Shown in pieces: positions 48,015 through 63,811 of a stretch of DNA of 64,000 nt (its first letter is position 1; the number at the start of each line of letters is the position of its first letter). The notes beneath the pieces were generated by a model. That model had not been told where the DNA came from. It worked only from the letters and a program-made list of their open reading frames with translations, and made no database searches. This stretch comes from Vicinamibacteria bacterium (GTDB lineage: Bacteria > Acidobacteriota > Vicinamibacteria > Marinacidobacterales > Marinacidobacteraceae): NCBI GenBank assembly GCA_965116805.1, contig OZ220713.1:145724-209723 (forward strand), written 5' to 3'. Made by a program: the position numbers and the translations under genes.

Positions 48015-48101
48015 GGAGAGGTGCTGGAGTGGCTGAACAGGGCTGCCTGCTAAGCAGTTGCGCGGGATACCGCGCCGAGGGTTCGAATCCCTCCCTCCCG
48101 C
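48015..48101 (+). tRNA. tRNA-Ser (anticodon GCT) with imperfect acceptor stem; probable attachment site (attL) of the downstream integrated element
   Basis: GGAGAGGTGCTGGAGTGGCTGAACAGG. Anticodon loop CTGCTAA. Long variable arm GCGCGGGATACCGCGC. T-arm GAGGGTTCGAATCCCTC. The 3' acceptor strand CCTCCCG gives G1.G72 and A3.C70 mismatches. Confidence 0.65.
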
Positions 48102-48241
48102 CGCCGGGGTGGTTCTCGCGTTCGTTCCTGTTCCCAAGAATGAGTTGTAATACCCCACATTTCAACATCTTATGATCTTGCGGCGTTCGGTCGCTTCCTC
48201 TATAGTCCCGTATGGCGCGTGGGACAACGCGTTGGGTAACT

Positions 48242-49387
48242 ATGGGAACATTGACTGTCGCGCGGGCCAAATCGCTCTCTGAACCCGGCCTCTACCGAGC
48301 GGACCCGACGCTCTACCTCCGGATCGCGCCCGGCGGATCGAAGTCGTGGGTTCAGCGGCTGACGATCGAAGGGCGTCGTCACGATCTCGGGTTGGGCGGC
48401 TTTCCGCTGGTAACTCTTGCCGAGGCGCGAGCCAAGGCATACGACAACCGACGGCTCGCCCGCTCCGGAGGCGATCCGCTCGCTGCGAAGCGTCGCGCCA
48501 AGACGCCGACCTTCCGGCAGGCGGCGTCGCGGACGTGCGACGCTCTCCGTCCACGCTGGCGGAACCACAAGCACGCGACGGACTGGATGGCGACCCTGGA
48601 GCGCCACGCCTATCCGGTGATCGGCGATATGAGCGTGGACCGAATCCGCCGAGAGGACGTGTTGCGGACGCTGACCCCGATTTGGACACACCGCCCGGAG
48701 ACGGCGCGACGCGTCCGCCAGCGAATGCGTGCCGTGCTGCGCTGGTGTTGGGCGCACGGCCACGTAGCGGAGAACGTCGCTGGAGAAGGGATCGACGGCG
48801 CGCTGCCGAAGATGCCGGCGGTCAGACAGCACTTCCGTGCGCTGCCGTATTCGGAGGTCGCGTCCGCGCTGGAAACGGTGGAGGCGTCACGAGCGAGCAA
48901 GGCGGCGAAACTCTGCCTCCGGTTCCTTGTCCTGACCGCGGCACGATCCGGCGAAGCTCGCGGGGCGACGTGGGCGGAGGTTGACGCGGAAGCACGGGAA
49001 TGGCGCATTCCGGGTGATCGCATGAAGCGGGGTGCGGAGCATCGGGTTCCGCTGAGCGATGCCGCGCTGGGTGTTCTCGAGCGGGCGCGGCCACTGGACG
49101 ATGGGAGCGGACTGATCTTCCCGTCAGCCCTGAGGCCGGGACACTCCCTTTCCAACATGACTCTCACGAAGATCCTGCGGGACCAGGGCCTCGCCGGCCG
49201 GACGACCGTCCACGGGTTCCGAAGCGCGTTTCGCGACTGGTGCGCGGAGACGGGTAAGCCCCGCGAGATCGCCGAGGCCGCGCTCGCCCATACGGTCGGG
49301 GGAGTGGAGGGGGCCTACTTTCGAAGCGATCTGTTCGCACGACGCCGCGTGCTCATGGACCAGTGGTCGGCCTTTGTGACTCGATAA
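48242..49387 (+). CDS. int: Tyrosine-type site-specific integrase (P4-like, DUF4102 N-terminal domain)
   Basis: 'LTVARAKSL.EPGLYRADPTLYLRIAPGGSKSWVQRL' arm-binding domain. Catalytic 'HGFRSAFRDW' and 'LAHTVGGVEGAYFRSD'. Immediately 3' of tRNA-Ser. In-frame alternative start at 48212. Confidence 0.85.
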   Translation: MGTLTVARAKSLSEPGLYRADPTLYLRIAPGGSKSWVQRLTIEGRRHDLGLGGFPLVTLAEARAKAYDNRRLARSGGDPLAAKRRAKTPTFRQAASRTCDALRPRWRNHKHATDWMATLERHAYPVIGDMSVDRIRREDVLRTLTPIWTHRPETARRVRQRMRAVLRWCWAHGHVAENVAGEGIDGALPKMPAVRQHFRALPYSEVASALETVEASRASKAAKLCLRFLVLTAARSGEARGATWAEVDAEAREWRIPGDRMKRGAEHRVPLSDAALGVLERARPLDDGSGLIFPSALRPGHSLSNMTLTKILRDQGLAGRTTVHGFRSAFRDWCAETGKPREIAEAALAHTVGGVEGAYFRSDLFARRRVLMDQWSAFVTR

Positions 49388-58175: not shown

Positions 58176-60254
58176 TCATATCTGGCCGGCTTCCCGCGCG
58201 CGCCAGTAGGGGCGGTCGCGGGGGAGGTAGTGTGGCTTGAGATAGACGCGGGTGGCGGGCTGCGCGTTGGTCCCGTCGTAGGGGAGGATGATCGCCTGGC
58301 AGTTCTCGAGGAGGGAGAAGGCGCGGGAGTGGAAGAGCGGCTCCCGCTGCTCGCGGTAGGACTTCGAGGTGCCGAGGGTGCCTTTCGCCCCGCCGGCGCG
58401 GGCGGTGATGACCGAGAAGCCGGGCTTGGCGGACTCCGTGAAGGAGTAGGAGGGGGAGAGCCGGAGCACCTTGCCGCACATGTTGGACGCCAGCTCGGCG
58501 CTGCTGTCGTCGCTCAGCGACAGGAAGACCTTGGTCCGGAGGGTCTGGAGGAGCGTGCGCCAGGCGTCCTGTCCCGACAGCACGCTCTTGAGCGAGCTGA
58601 TGGACTGGGTGGCGACGATCGGGATGACGCGGGACTGGCGGGTGAGGGCGAAGGCCTTTTCGTCGCCGGCGGGGTCGTCCTCTCCCACGGACGCGAAGCT
58701 CTGGTATTCGTCGCAGAGGAACACGGCGGGGCGGAAGTAGCGGTTGGGGTTGAGCTTGATCTGCGCCGGGCGGGCGAGGAGCGTCTGGAGCCAGGCGTTC
58801 TTCAGCAGGACGCCCTCGGTGCGTGCGAGGGCGGGGTTGGCTCCGGCCGGCATGTTGAGGGCGATGACCTTGCCCGACTCGATGAGTTGCTGGAGCGGCG
58901 GGAGGCGTTGGAGGAGGCCGGTGGCGACGGGCGTCGTCGCGCCCGGTGGGGGCGACGGGAGGTCGTGGGGGACGGGCGCCGCGGGCGGCGGCGGTGGCGG
59001 GCAGAACACTCGGGCCACATCCGGGAGGTCGAACATGGAGAGGAAAACGCTCACACCTTCCACGATGGAGGTCCGGAGCTTGGTATCGAGCTGGAGCCAG
59101 TCGTAGTGGTACCAGCGCTCGATGGCGGCGACGCGCTGGGCATGCTCGCTCGGCGGGCGGTAACTCGCCTCGACGGTGGCCTCGACCCCGACGGACCTGA
59201 GGGAATCGAGCAGCTCCTCGTCATAGGGGACCCGGATGCCGTCGCCGTCGTCGCTGGCGGGTTGCCACGGGTATTCGAGCAGGCCGTCGTCGCGTTTGCG
59301 GAGAATGTCGTGCCTCGAAGCGACGATGTAGTAGGTGGGCGGGGGGCCGTCGAGCGCCTTGGCCTGTTCGATCTTCTGGCCGATGCGCTGGGGGTCAATG
59401 GCGCAGTGATAGAGGTCCTGGAACGTCACCCACTGGTCGGGGAGCGCCCGGTGGAGTTCGATCAGCCAGCGGATGAGGTTGGTGTACGCCTGCTGCCAGA
59501 AGGGCTCCTTGCTCTTGCCGAAGAGCTGGTTGAGCAGCGAGGCGACGGTGTAGGCGAGCGAGTAGCTGTCCAGGGAGGACGCGAGGGGGTTCCACTGCCA
59601 GCGGCCCCCGAGGGCGAGTTCGATGTAGTCGTCGCCCCGGCCGGCGTCTTCCAGGTCCGCGCGGATGTCGTGGCAGAAGTCGCCCTTGACTTCGAGGACG
59701 AGAGCGGCGGCCCGCTTCTGCGGGTCCGCGGACTGCCACGAGAGGAGCTGCTGCGCGAAGGGCCGCATGCAGGCGGAGGTCTTGCCGGTCCCGACGGCGC
59801 CGAAGACGGCGATCCCGGTATACAGGCCGCGCTCGGGGAGCGTGAGCCAGGAAGGCCGGGTGATTTCGCGGGGCTCGGTGGGATGGTGGAACTCCCCGAC
59901 CACGAGAGAAAGAGAGTTGTCGGCGGGCGAGGTGGGCCAGGGCGGCAGGGTGCCGCGGCCGAAGCGGCGGTCCCGCGTGCGGGAACCGAACCAGAGGCGG
60001 TAGGAGCTGGTGACGACCATGACGCCGATGAAGGCCATGACCGACGGCATGAGGAGATGCCAGGTGCGGATGACCGCGTAGAAGCCGGGGTCTTCGAAGG
60101 CGATGAGGTCGAGGATGGGAACGTCGCCGGGCGCGGGGAAAGGGCGCGCCACGGCGGACCACGCGAGCACAACGCACGCGAGAAAGAAGGCGACGACGAC
60201 CCGCCAGCTGAGAAGTCGGTTGGCCGCTTCGGCGGCGCCAGCGAAGCGGTTCAA
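58176..60254 (-). CDS. Type IV secretion coupling protein-like ATPase (VirD4/TraG/TraD family)
   Basis: Two N-terminal TM helices. Walker A 'GIAVFGAVGTGKTSACMRP'. 'VFLCDEYQSF' (Walker B-like). 'QTLRTKVFL'. The start is uncertain (TTG at 60254 proposed). The first 150 codons of the 841-aa ORF are low-complexity and overlap repeat DNA. Confidence 0.6.
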   Translation of the reverse strand: MNRFAGAAEAANRLLSWRVVVAFFLACVVLAWSAVARPFPAPGDVPILDLIAFEDPGFYAVIRTWHLLMPSVMAFIGVMVVTSSYRLWFGSRTRDRRFGRGTLPPWPTSPADNSLSLVVGEFHHPTEPREITRPSWLTLPERGLYTGIAVFGAVGTGKTSACMRPFAQQLLSWQSADPQKRAAALVLEVKGDFCHDIRADLEDAGRGDDYIELALGGRWQWNPLASSLDSYSLAYTVASLLNQLFGKSKEPFWQQAYTNLIRWLIELHRALPDQWVTFQDLYHCAIDPQRIGQKIEQAKALDGPPPTYYIVASRHDILRKRDDGLLEYPWQPASDDGDGIRVPYDEELLDSLRSVGVEATVEASYRPPSEHAQRVAAIERWYHYDWLQLDTKLRTSIVEGVSVFLSMFDLPDVARVFCPPPPPPAAPVPHDLPSPPPGATTPVATGLLQRLPPLQQLIESGKVIALNMPAGANPALARTEGVLLKNAWLQTLLARPAQIKLNPNRYFRPAVFLCDEYQSFASVGEDDPAGDEKAFALTRQSRVIPIVATQSISSLKSVLSGQDAWRTLLQTLRTKVFLSLSDDSSAELASNMCGKVLRLSPSYSFTESAKPGFSVITARAGGAKGTLGTSKSYREQREPLFHSRAFSLLENCQAIILPYDGTNAQPATRVYLKPHYLPRDRPYWRAREAGQI
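60081..60152. repeat. Direct repeat copy A (about 70 bp, about 90% identical to 60372..60445) within the 5' region of the coupling-protein gene
   Basis: CGGGGTCTTCGAAGGCGATGAGGTCGAGGATGGGAACGTCGCCGGGCGCGGGGAAAGGGCGC versus CGGGGATCTTCGAGGGCGATGAGGTCGAGGACCGGAACGTCGCCGGGCGCGGGGAATGCGCC. Both encode ..FPAPGDVP(I/V)LDLIA(F/L)EDP.. on the minus strand. Confidence 0.6.
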
Positions 60255-60371
60255 GGGAAGAGCGGCAGCCCGGCCGGCGGCGTGGCGGAGGAGCGCGGCG
60301 TGGCGGACGACGGCGCAGCCGAAGGAGAGGGTGACGCAGGCCGGTGCCGCGTAGTGCCACGCCCAAGCACC

Positions 60372-60445
60372 CCGGAGGCGCGGGGATCTTCGAGGGCGAT
60401 GAGGTCGAGGACCGGAACGTCGCCGGGCGCGGGGAATGCGCCGTA
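60372..60445. repeat. Direct repeat copy B (partner of 60081..60152)
   Basis: See copy A. Confidence 0.6.
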
Positions 60446-60462
60446 GCGGAGCGTGAGGCAGG

Positions 60463-60572
60463 GCGCGTCGAGGGCCGCGGTGATGGGGACGACGAGGCGC
60501 GTGGGCCGGGTTCTCGAGGTACTCCACGAGGACCGGCGCGCGGGTGGTGCCGTCATCCCGAAGTTGCCTTCC
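60463..60572. repeat. Left copy of an about 105-bp imperfect inverted repeat flanking the IS110-family region
   Basis: The reverse complement of 60470..60570 aligns at about 85-88% with 62158..62265 (..GATCCCTGCGGGAAGGCAA.T.CGGGATGA...CCACCCGCGC...GTGGAGT.CCTCGAG.A.CCGGCCCACGCGCCTCGT). Confidence 0.6.
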
Positions 60573-60871
60573 CGCAGGGATCAGTCGCGCCGTCGGCGCG
60601 GGCAGGGAGCGACCTCCGACACCTAGCAGAAGGGCTAGCCTGAATGCGGGTTTCGGGACCGTAGATCGGCCGATCGGAGGGGGGTCGCTTGTCTCTTCCA
60701 TACTTGGCGATTCCGGCCCGATTCACGGGTCGGGGACGGTGGTCGGATCGCGGGGTCGCATGGCCGTAAGGGGCCGCTAGGGAGTCCTGATCGCCACCGT
60801 CCTTCCTCCGTCCTGAATGGATACTCGAGCATCGAGGCTCGCACGACAAGCACAGGAAAAGGGAAGAACCC

Positions 60872-61828
60872 ATGAACAGCATCCTTCGCACCGTCGGGAT
60901 CGACATCTCCAAGGACTGGTTCGACGCCTTCGCCGCACCCGAGGGCGGGACAGCCCGGTTCTTGAACAACCGGGCTGGCTTCCGCCAGCTGATCGCCTGA
61001 ATCGGCTCCGGAGTCGACCGGATCGCGTATGAGCCCTCGGGCACCGTCCACCGAGAGCTTGAGGAGACGCTCCTGAAGGCCGGCCTCCCGCTCTATGCGA
61101 TCAACCCGTTCCAGGTGCGGTCCTTCGCCCGCTCGCTGGGGCGGCGCGCCAAGACCGATCCGGTGGACGCCCGGATGCTGGCCACCATGGCGGCGTCCGT
61201 CGAGGATCTGCGGCCGACCGAGGCGCGGTCGGAGGGGCAGCACGACCTCGCCGAACTCCAACAGATCCGGGACGGTCTGCGCCGGGATCGGGTCACCGCC
61301 ATCAACCGCGGCAAGCAGTTGCGCACCCCCGTGGGCAAGCGGCTCAACAAGCAGCGGCTGGGGCAGATCGAGCGGCAGCTGGAGGTCATCGACGCCGAGA
61401 TCCGGACGCGGCTCGCGGAGGAGAAGACCTTGCAGCGCCGGGCGGAGATCCTGACCTCCATCCCGGGCATCTCGGACATCACCGCGGCCGGTCTGGTCGT
61501 CCTGATGCCCGAGCTCGGCACGCTCACCGGCGCACGGGCCGCCAGCCTCGCGGGGCTGGCCCCGGTCACCCGGGAGTCCGGGCAGTGGAAGGGACGCGGC
61601 TTCATCCAGGGCGGCCGGCACCGGGTCCGCCGGCTGCTCTACATGCCCGCGCTGGTCGCCGCGCACCACAACCCCGGTCTCAAGCACACGTACCAGGCGC
61701 TCCTGGCTCGGGGGAAGCCGCCGAAGGTCGCCCTGACGACGGTGATGCGGAAGCTCCTCGTCCTCGCCAACGCCCTTGTGCAGCAGAACCGCACCTGGAC
61801 GGCGCTTGCCCCAGGCGCTCACGGGTGA
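60872..61828 (+). mobile_element. IS110-family transposase gene with an in-frame TGA (60998-61000) at the position of a conserved Trp; pseudogene or sequencing error
   Basis: N-terminal 'MNSILRTVGIDISKDWFDAFAAPEGGTARFLNNRAGFRQLIA*IGSGVDRIAYEPSGTVHRE' is one continuous frame with the C-terminal 'DPVDARMLA...' domain (ORF 61115..61828). IS110 transposases have ..LIAWL.. at this position, so TGG changed to TGA. Confidence 0.7.
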
Positions 61829-62027
61829 GCGTTCGGTGAGGGTATCGAGGACAGCGAGCACGGAGAGGCGGGAGCCGCTTTTGCCGCCGGTTGCGCAGCT
61901 TTCGGGGTCAGCGTTTTGCGGCAAAAGGACAGCACCCCCCTTTTGCCGCTGCTTTTGCCGCTTCCCGATCACACCGTCGTTCCCGAAAGCCGTTGTCCCC
62001 GTTGCCTTTCGGGCAGGGCATCCTCTC

Positions 62028-62059
62028 CCCCGTTCTCCGCGTTTGCGCGGAGAACGGGG
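62028..62059 (+). other. Perfect 14-bp GC-rich stem-loop (CCCCGTTCTCCGCG-TTTG-CGCGGAGAACGGGG) in the palindrome-rich region downstream of the IS110 transposase gene
   Basis: Read directly from the sequence. No T-tract follows. The surrounding 61,830-62,160 holds several further palindromes (TTTTGCCGC/GCGGCAAAA, CCCGAAAGG/CCTTTCGGG). Confidence 0.5.
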
Positions 62060-62157
62060 CGGGGAGCGACCCCCCTCCATCTTCGGGATGGACGGCCCGG
62101 AAACGGGCGGCTTTTGCCGCCCCTTTTGCCGCTTTGGGGGTCGCTCCCCGGCCGCGC

Positions 62158-62265
62158 CTGCGGCGCGAGTGATCCCTGCGGGAAGGCAAATCCGGGATGA
62201 TCGCGCCACCCGCGCCCGGGCCCTGGTGGAGTTCCTCGAGGATCCGGCCCACGCGCCTCGTTAAC
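62158..62265. repeat. Right copy of the about 105-bp imperfect inverted repeat flanking the IS110-family region
   Basis: See left copy (60463..60572). Confidence 0.6.
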
Positions 62266-62759
62266 GGATGATCGGACTCGTTCGGAGCGGCTCCACTTGA
62301 CATGGATACTCCCTGCCCAACTCTCCGCCCCGAAGCGGAGAGTGCGGTTCGGGAGTACGCGAGCGAACCGTAGCAATGCCAACGGGTCTTGCAGGGCACG
62401 GTGGCGAGAACGGGGGTAGCGGAAGTGCTAGCGGAAGGGGGTGCTGACTTCCGCTAGTACAGACGTGGCCCCCGACGTGGCCCCGTGGGGGATGACTTAC
62501 CCGCGGGAGTCGGGCGTCCGTTCGTGAACGGCCCGGTGCGTTCGAACGGCGACCACCACCAGTTGTGACAGGTTGTTCAGGCCGAAACCGCGGGTGCTCC
62601 GTCAGCCGTCGTCGGTGCGGTGTCGGCGCGAGAAGGCGACGGGGAAGGGTCTGCCATCGGACTCGTTTTCCCGGCGGGCGACGTTCCGGGAACCGACGTG
62701 GAGTTCTCTCGTCGTGGGGTTTGGCGGGGGTGTCGACCACAGGGGGACCTCCGGCTGGG

Positions 62760-63811
62760 TTAGAGAGCGAGCATGTCGGGAGCGAGGCGTTCAGCGACGT
62801 GAGTGGAGTAGGCGTCGATGCACTTCGCCGGCCCACGGGCGTCGCTAATGCGCTGCTCGATGCGCAGCGCGCGTCTGCCCGCTTCGAGCCAGCCGCCGTG
62901 CCTGTCGAGCTGCGAGAAATCGCCGGTGGAGTTGGCGAGCTCGACGTCATCAAGGAGTTGCTGGTCTGTTGCGGAGTGAGCAACGGCGGGCGCCGGTGGC
63001 CCGCACCATTTCTCCAGGATTGCGGCGTTCCTCGCGGCAGCGTCGTCCGTGCGGGTGACGGCAACGACGTGCACGGCGTCCCCTCGGTTACGGAGGGCTT
63101 CCCAGAGAGCAACGTGGGCGGCGGCCCAGGACCGGATGCCGGCGGACCGGGGCGGGCGCCGGTCGGCGGTGTCCGTGTAGACGAACGTCGTGGTCGTCCG
63201 ATCGCCCGCGATGGGGAGCTTCAGTGCGAAGTAGCGGTGGGTGGAGCGATCGGTACGGGGCCGCGATAGACGCGCTGGGGAAGGGTGGCGACGGGGATAC
63301 CGAGACTCTCGAAATAGGCCAGCTTCTCGGGTTCCGTGGGCAGCCAGTGGAGATCCTGGTGTTCGAGGACGTAGTCGAGCGAGAGGAGCCGGCGCATGGT
63401 GATTTCCGGGGAGGCAGGCTTGCGGTGACGGTTGTTCTCGATCCCAAGCGCGCGGTAGAGCGGGCGGGCGTGGATGTGGCAGACACCGGTCGGCCGATAG
63501 GGACGGCGATCGGGGAACCTGGCTTCGCGGGCAATCCCGGCTTCGATCAGTGCCACGGCGACCTGGTCCGCGCGCTGTCGGCAGACGCCGTAGCAGTCGG
63601 CGTACTGGCGACGGGTGAACACGCCGGAGTGGAGGCAGACCAAGGCGAGCCACTCGGCCTGCCGCTCCGTCCAGCCGAGGCCACGAAGGGTCGCGGTCCG
63701 CTCCGCGAACGTGGGGAGCGCGGTGGCGGCTGCGTCGTTCATGGGCAGGCCGGGGCGGCGAGAAGGGGCCGGAGCCGGTCCGCCCAGATGGCGACCCGCG
63801 CAGCGGTCCAC
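62760..63811 (-). pseudogene. Possible frameshifted gene for a mobile-element protein (replication/relaxation-like, wHTH N-terminus); two overlapping minus-strand ORFs 63221..63811 and 62760..63653
   Basis: The 196-aa piece ('..WLALVCLHSGVFTRRQYADCYGV..HIHARPLYRALGIENNRHRKP..RRLLSLDYVLEH..') and the C-terminal 150 aa of the 297-aa piece ('YFALKLPIAGDRTTTTFVYTDTADRRPPRSAGIRSW..') both look protein-like. They are in different frames, overlapping near 63225-63250. Confidence 0.3.

Follow-up and report, generated by a model that had tools for sequence, protein, structure and literature searches.

The long inverted repeat around an IS110 recombinase gene in the DNA analysed here is most probably explained by an insertion sequence (IS) that is guided by a bridge RNA, carries as a passenger a complete copy of the element that it targets, and has inserted, inverted, into a resident member of that target family. 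We put the probability of this whole explanation at about 85%. The window, meaning the entire stretch of 64,000 nucleotides under analysis, is G000:C1:145724-209723 of a 3.56-Mb genome with 70% G+C. The target element, which we call X, is a non-coding, hairpin-rich element of ~315 nt. The two arms of the repeat differ in origin, the left arm being target X and the right arm passenger X. Comparison of sequences establishes the boundaries of the IS, its target, its guides, the absence of the passenger from related elements and the separate origins of the arms. The features are collected in Table 1.

Table 1. Coordinates (window numbering) of the IS, its target and the neighbouring genes.
Feature	Position	Strand	Basis or remark
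VirD4/TraG-like coupling-protein gene	58176..60250 (start approximate)	-	PF10412 and PF12696; third-position bias ends at ~60250
Left arm of the inverted repeat	60492..60689	-	3' module and downstream tail of native X; target DNA, outside the IS
Target core dinucleotide CT, left junction	60688..60689	+	empty site overlaps both flanks by 2 nt
Inserted IS110-group element, 1,621 bp	60690..62310	+	missing from orthologous loci L014 and L015
Left end with predicted bridge RNA, 182 nt	60690..60871	+	RNAalifold consensus and guide matches
Predicted guides	LTG 60752-60759; RTG 60779-60784; LDG 60817-60825; RDG 60845-60850	+	matches to target or IS ends
IS110 recombinase gene	60872..61828	+	in-frame TGA at 60998-61000
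Passenger segment, ~440 bp	61830..62270	+	complete X 61876-62190, tail 62191-62261 and a few flanking bases
10-mers in IS-borne X	direct 61878, 61940, 61952, 62111, 62123; inverted 61918
Right arm of the inverted repeat	62065..62261	+	inside passenger X of the IS; repeat search and gapped alignment
Ancestral right-end terminus	62262..62310	+	homologous to IS right ends of G001, G007 and G011
Remainder of native X (5' module)	62311..62490	-	contiguous with 60689 in empty sites; aligns with other X 5' modules
Winged-helix/nuclease-like gene upstream of native X	62760..63811	-	frameshifted; intact paralogue L007:2406-3482

The inverted repeat and the boundaries of the IS

A repeat search of the window found inverted arms at 60492-60617 and 62136-62261 (126 nt, 86% complementary), and a gapped local alignment extended them to 60492-60689 against 62065-62261, with 156 of 195 aligned positions identical (80%). 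The gapped alignment scored 102, as against 12±1.5 for shuffled sequences (maximum 17, n=200 shuffles). The long imperfect inverted repeat that an earlier note on this DNA had described around the IS110 gene is, on these figures, real. Its dimensions needed revision: each arm runs ~120 nt further inward than the ~105 bp given there, and of the left arm as given there only 60492-60570 aligns (79 nt, 85%), which puts its start 22 nt later. The earlier reading of a frame open in both arms (from the open reading frames) stood, as did the view that the identity of the arms lies at the DNA level. Indeed, when the locus was compared with its orthologues, an excess of substitutions at third codon positions was seen only up to ~60250 and none in the arms. 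The lack of third-position bias beyond ~60250 indicates that the arms are non-coding, and we ruled out coding arms on this ground.

Loci without the IS were found in other species of the same genus. The orthologous locus of G003 (L014) matches the window at 58969-60689 and then directly at 62309-63809, both at 93%, with an overlap of 2 nt. The locus of G009 (L015) shows the same pattern, so that in both genomes the left arm is contiguous with 62311 onward, and a further unoccupied site with a solo X was found in G008 (L019). Absence of 60690-62310 from the empty sites identifies this stretch as the inserted element, and their boundaries make the left arm target DNA and place the right arm inside the IS. 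The dinucleotide CT, the core at the left junction, also terminates the IS at 62309-62310.

The recombinase region is present in three copies in the genome, A (in the window), B and C, which are 95-99% identical over 60656-62190 and diverge in 60618-60655 and in all outer flanks. Their left arms are unlike, chiefly in the 60-nt loop of the target element, yet one common junction ends them all; the right arm is 96-99% identical across the three. Copy B (genome 1101681-1103300, minus strand, 1,620 bp) has the same ends as copy A and has another X as its target, and all insertions lie at one motif. All three copies are partly defective, and present activity would need complementation in trans. 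In copy A the ends are intact and the recombinase gene has a nonsense codon; in copy B the gene is intact and the right-end core is AT in place of CT; in copy C (L006, genome 64891-66518) the gene is intact and the right end has been lost.

These boundaries bear on two readings put forward in the earlier note. According to the first, a long palindrome was already present, the IS entered it at its centre and both arms are target DNA; this would account for arms that are 80-86% complementary and would suit IS110 elements, known to pick hairpin-forming repeats. However, the empty sites of G003, G009 and G008 join the left arm straight to 62311 onward, so that the first two hold the left arm only and no palindrome, and the right arm is near-identical in the three copies, although these have different left arms and outer flanks. 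In addition, a search of the genome for the repeat unit free of an IS returned six solo X elements and, among 12 X sites, no IS-free palindromic X-X pair. We therefore regard a pre-existing palindrome as very unlikely. What survives of this reading is insertion into a pre-existing hairpin-bearing repeat: the left arm is target DNA and comes from an element that is repeated and forms hairpins.

According to the second reading, the arms are the ends of a composite or TIR-type transposon with terminal inverted repeats of unusual length, as their position on either side of a recombinase gene might suggest. In such elements the inverted repeats are the termini. Here, the inserted segment does not include the left arm, which the empty sites also possess and which varies among the three IS copies. 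The right arm is internal to the IS, hardly differs from copy to copy and falls 49 nt short of the right end. Moreover, the real ends, given by the donor guides and the CT core, share no long repeat. Terminal repeats are thus extremely unlikely. The suspicion that the repeat might be a generic one, and not a feature of the IS, proved half right: the unit is a generic repeat of integrative elements, one copy of which is now part of the IS.

A predicted bridge RNA with guides to the target and the IS ends

IS110-group elements encode a bridge RNA with target- and donor-binding loops in their left end, and IS1111-group elements have it in a long right end (PMC11208160). Passenger aside, 60690-62310 has the sequence of an ordinary IS110-group bridge-RNA insertion sequence. 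The intact recombinase of copy B matches PF01548 (E=4.7e-22) and PF02371 (E=3e-19), and has the DEDD (RuvC-like) N-terminal and C-terminal Tnp domains that are characteristic of IS110. The recombinase of copy A has the same domains despite its TGA codon, which is TGG in the other two copies.

We derived an RNAalifold consensus from four left ends, namely those of the window IS and of three related elements from G001 and G006. It consists of a 5' hairpin followed by two modules, each a stem, an internal loop and a hairpin. With guide roles assigned by the definitions in PMC11208160, the LTG in the first loop equals the 8 nt directly left of the insertion point and the RTG in the same loop matches, as reverse complement, the CT core together with the 4 nt that open the right flank. 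In the second loop, the LDG equals the last 9 nt of the IS, and the reverse complement of the RDG reads CT followed by the 4 nt with which the IS begins. All four matches together were obtained in none of 20,000 shuffles of the left end. The left end is thus predicted to encode a bridge RNA with guides both to the target and to the ends of the IS.

Guides and flanks also vary together among the relatives in G001 and G006. The IS of L021 (G001) has different target guides, which match its own, different flanks; the G006 IS has its right donor guide altered at exactly the base where its left terminus differs; and an RDG of AACAAG pairs with the TGTT start of a relative.

A separate observation concerns L024 (G001:C10:44407-45468), an IS whose recombinase gene has a TGA codon. 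Its target guides mismatch its own flanks, and the flanks resemble the target of the sister element L021. The mismatch points to an IS that was mobilised in trans or whose guides drifted afterwards.

The ancestral terminus of the right end contains a -35-like TTGACA at 62297-62302, with the terminal CT after it. Joining of the right end to the left end in silico gave TTGACA, a 17-nt spacer and CATACT, a junction sequence that is the promoter expected for a circular form of the element. The element therefore resembles IS621 and the IS110 group (PMC11208160) in its DEDD and Tnp recombinase, left-end bridge RNA, CT core at both junctions, site-specific insertion and lack of terminal inverted repeats, and in a right-end -35 box that would form a promoter across the circle junction. 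It differs from them in that its right end, at 482 nt, exceeds the left end of 182 nt, the reverse of the order usual in the group, because of the ~440-bp passenger, and in that its target is the stem of a mobile-element module and not a chromosomal REP sequence. The window IS does not fit the IS1111 group, whose members have subterminal inverted repeats of 7-17 bp and encode the guide RNA in a long right end, as all four guides lie in the left end and the right end owes its length to the passenger.

Element X as target and as passenger

From its 5' end, X is made up of a 5' module hairpin with a variable stem and a conserved loop, a short GC hairpin, a stem of 17-20 bp that encloses a loop of ~60 nt, a further hairpin and an invariant tail. 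The IS separates the 5' module of the native X from its 3' module, and the left arm accordingly reads as stem, variable loop, stem, hairpin and conserved tail. A 10-mer, whose sequence changes from one X to another, is repeated within each X, five times in direct and once in inverted orientation. Among the loci compared, the tail does not vary, and compensatory changes have preserved the stem. A conserved 14-mer of the tail occurs 12 times in the genome. Six occurrences belong to the arms flanking the recombinase in the three IS copies; the other six are in solo X elements, each located 0.4-4.4 kb downstream of the 3' end of a P4-type integrase gene. No other IS110 genes were found beside the solo X copies, the genome having only three copies of the recombinase. 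X-like elements were found in 14 of 15 other genomes of the genus that were searched. An Rfam scan of 59500-63500 at E values up to 1 gave no match.

The passenger sits between the stop codon of the recombinase gene and the last 49 nt of the right end. It is 86-88% identical over ~400 nt to native intergenic X elements beside coupling-protein genes in G002 and G013. Related elements lack it: two copies in G001 are 1,260 bp long with right ends of ~82 nt, and the G007 element has ~40 nt after its stop codon and ends in the same terminal motif. In the relatives without a passenger, left ends are 221-228 nt and right ends 40-82 nt. Judged by these comparisons, the passenger is a complete X, of another subtype than the resident targets, that was acquired in this IS lineage.

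The segment 61830-62270 could alternatively be a functional RNA of the IS itself, for instance a right-end guide RNA of the IS1111 type, rather than a passenger. In favour are its length, its many hairpins and its near-identity among the three copies, and the bridge RNA of IS1111-group elements does sit in a long right end. We nevertheless consider this reading unlikely, and strongly so, since the left end already contains a complete bridge RNA and all four of its guides, right ends of 40-82 nt suffice in close relatives, the segment has no Rfam match, and the same sequence is found without an IS between two conjugation-type genes in many phyla.

How the IS gained its passenger X is less clearly recorded in the DNA. 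An imperfect duplication of ~11 nt, derived from the last codons of the recombinase gene, flanks the passenger, and the upstream flank of the native X also resembles the left junction. As a trace of capture the duplication is suggestive, being too short and too diverged to decide, and we set it aside as proof of a mechanism because the alignment is weak (score 18). IS110 variants have been described that have 3' non-coding extensions homologous to flanking DNA, and recombination at half-matches was proposed for them (bioRxiv 10.64898/2026.08.14.744561). By analogy, and as the simplest framework available, the passenger was possibly captured through such half-match expansion; we found no convincing donor half-match at its boundaries. 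The window IS is like these expanded elements in that its body is enlarged on the 3' side by DNA that resembles the flank, and differs from them in that it captured a whole copy of its own target element, of another subtype and always inverted. No passenger-bearing copy was found outside this genome, although fragmented assemblies such as G011 have the IS collapsed.

In the mechanism that we propose, the target-binding loop would be programmed for GGGGTCGCT^CCCT, one strand of the conserved X stem, and the IS lineage has gained a complete X of another subtype between its stop codon and its last 49 nt. Use of the same stem strand at each insertion seen in an X leaves the passenger X opposite to the target X, so that an inverted repeat is built in: each such insertion produces an imperfect inverted repeat of ~200 bp, with target X on the left and passenger X on the right. 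The target motif is present on both strands of each X stem (for example at genome positions 29846/29912 and 2454884/2454950), and all readable insertions in X, namely the three in this genome and the G011 junctions, are on one stem strand. We infer that this preference could reflect survivorship, as insertion on the other strand would give direct repeats, soon deleted by homologous recombination. At one locus in G011 (L118, G011:C113:3500-4898), a copy of the left end of this IS abuts a flank that is not X and that ends in the same 9-nt left-target motif, which shows that the guide match, and not X itself, defines the site.

ISPpu10 is a structure-gated IS110 element for which the target hairpin may matter beyond base pairing (bioRxiv 10.64898/2026.03.19.712850). 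Like it, the window IS inserts into many copies of one conserved intergenic, hairpin-bearing sequence. In contrast to ISPpu10, the insertion point of the window IS is inside the stem, and one of two near-identical stem strands is used.

Copy C points to what follows from carrying such homology. Its left junction is normal, and its passenger X switches into the flank of an integrase-associated solo X (93% identical to the S2 flank), with loss of the right end of the IS. The carried homology thus appears to drive rearrangement and deletion. The switch point falls within the last 35 nt of the conserved block, a putative nick region, which makes it compatible with homologous recombination or with relaxase-mediated recombination between two origins of transfer (oriT).

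The IS family, bridge RNA, conserved hairpin targets and 3' extensions resembling flanks were all known before. New are a passenger that is a complete copy of the IS's own target family, an inverted repeat that arises systematically from this IS, and a target that is the near-invariant stem of a cross-phylum module, which has the appearance of a relaxase-plus-oriT system not described before. In this way, the presence of long inverted repeats on either side of an IS110 recombinase gene is explained without new transposition chemistry. The element also offers natural examples of an IS whose bridge RNA is directed to a structural site conserved in other mobile elements, of the capture of non-coding cargo by an IS110 element, and of a captured target copy that predetermines inverted repeats at every insertion, the homology then driving rearrangement as in copy C. 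A by-product of the analysis is the deeply conserved non-coding element X, together with an unannotated family of neighbouring proteins.

The island around X and a possible role in transfer

The native X lies within an integrative element bounded by a tRNA-Ser gene and a P4-type integrase gene (48015-49387), with the coupling-protein gene downstream of X and the winged-helix/nuclease-like gene upstream. We considered and rejected the idea that X is a tRNA-like target or the attachment site of an integrase: the solo X copies have no tRNA nearby, and the X of the window has a mid-island position, 12 kb away from the attachment site at tRNA-Ser.

The winged-helix/nuclease-like protein (~325 aa) has more than 650 relatives, and its family is encoded at more than 580 loci across Acidobacteriota, Gemmatimonadota and others. 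Searches with it gave no match to a Pfam, NCBIfam or PHROG family and nothing in PDB sequences or plasmid records. A scan of the genome with PF13814 (Replic_Relax) missed both paralogues, and we set aside membership in Replic_Relax or a known relaxase family, for which there is no support at the sequence level. In the structural model (mean pLDDT 86) we recognized a MarR-like winged helix (Z about 8), and the C-terminal part best matched the restriction endonuclease SdaI with a middling Z of 7.5 (rmsd 3.6 over 113 aligned residues). Foldseek against the PDB returned the winged helix only. We examined 80 loci that encode relatives of this protein, from Acidobacteriota, Gemmatimonadota, Dehalococcoidia and Proteobacteria MAGs (L037-L116). 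The coupling-protein gene is directly downstream of the neighbour-family gene in 56 of them, and in 50 of these 56 the X profile matches the spacer. From its modelled fold, the gene is a candidate relaxase gene, and with X it may form a candidate new relaxase-plus-oriT family.

This arrangement recalls MOBC systems. The MOBC relaxase of pAD1, TraX, binds five direct repeats at a distance from nic (reviewed in PMC12857230). The neighbour protein, as modelled, may share with TraX an N-terminal winged helix and a restriction-endonuclease-like C-terminal fold, and X is like the pAD1 oriT in its large inverted repeat and five short direct repeats, next to a coupling-protein gene. In contrast to TraX, the neighbour protein has no detectable sequence relation to Replic_Relax or any other family, so that the likeness is one of fold, at a Z of 7.5. 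The gene order, modelled protein folds and repeats resemble those of MOBC systems and lead us to read X as a probable oriT: what is expected of an oriT, a conserved inverted repeat and short direct repeats with relaxase-candidate and coupling-protein genes adjacent, is all found here. By analogy with pAD1, we give X roughly even odds of being an origin of transfer.

Somewhat short of even is the chance that X is another cis-acting site of the island, such as an iteron-type replication origin, a regulatory region of the coupling gene or an array of integrase arm sites, or else a non-coding RNA gene. The five direct and one inverted 10-mers, which vary between X copies, are as in iterons and arm sites; the solo X copies are close to the 3' ends of integrase genes; and the upstream protein is no recognised relaxase. 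On the other hand, the X of the window is far from the attachment site, in mid-island, the order of winged-helix/nuclease-like gene, X and coupling-protein gene recurs in 56 of 80 loci across phyla, and this order mirrors pAD1-type MOBC systems, with their five relaxase-binding direct repeats set apart from nic.

If X is an oriT, the solo X-plus-integrase islands would be hitchers of an already described kind, which carry an oriT only. It is rather unlikely, and would be the most far-reaching case, that the IS captured a working oriT of the integrative elements that it parasitises, with a cross-phylum relaxase-plus-oriT family behind it. If this were so, each insertion would break a resident oriT and deliver a replacement, the IS circle and any replicon that it entered would become mobilisable by the cognate relaxase, and conjugation would join RNA-guided recombination as a means by which the IS spreads. 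A relaxase-plus-oriT system of this kind would, in addition, aid the annotation of integrative mobilisable elements in poorly studied phyla.

Two further observations concern the island. The tRNA gene that precedes the integrase gene is tRNA-Ser(GCT), and a 16-nt repeat of its T-arm region occurs ~22.8 kb downstream, at ~70924 in window coordinates and thus outside the window, which may be the right attachment site of the island. Next to the coupling-protein gene, a direct duplication of 73 nt (85%) pairs 60073-60145, in the N-terminal part of the gene, with 60369-60441, 296 nt upstream. The same duplication is found in the G003 orthologue and is therefore older than the insertion of the IS.
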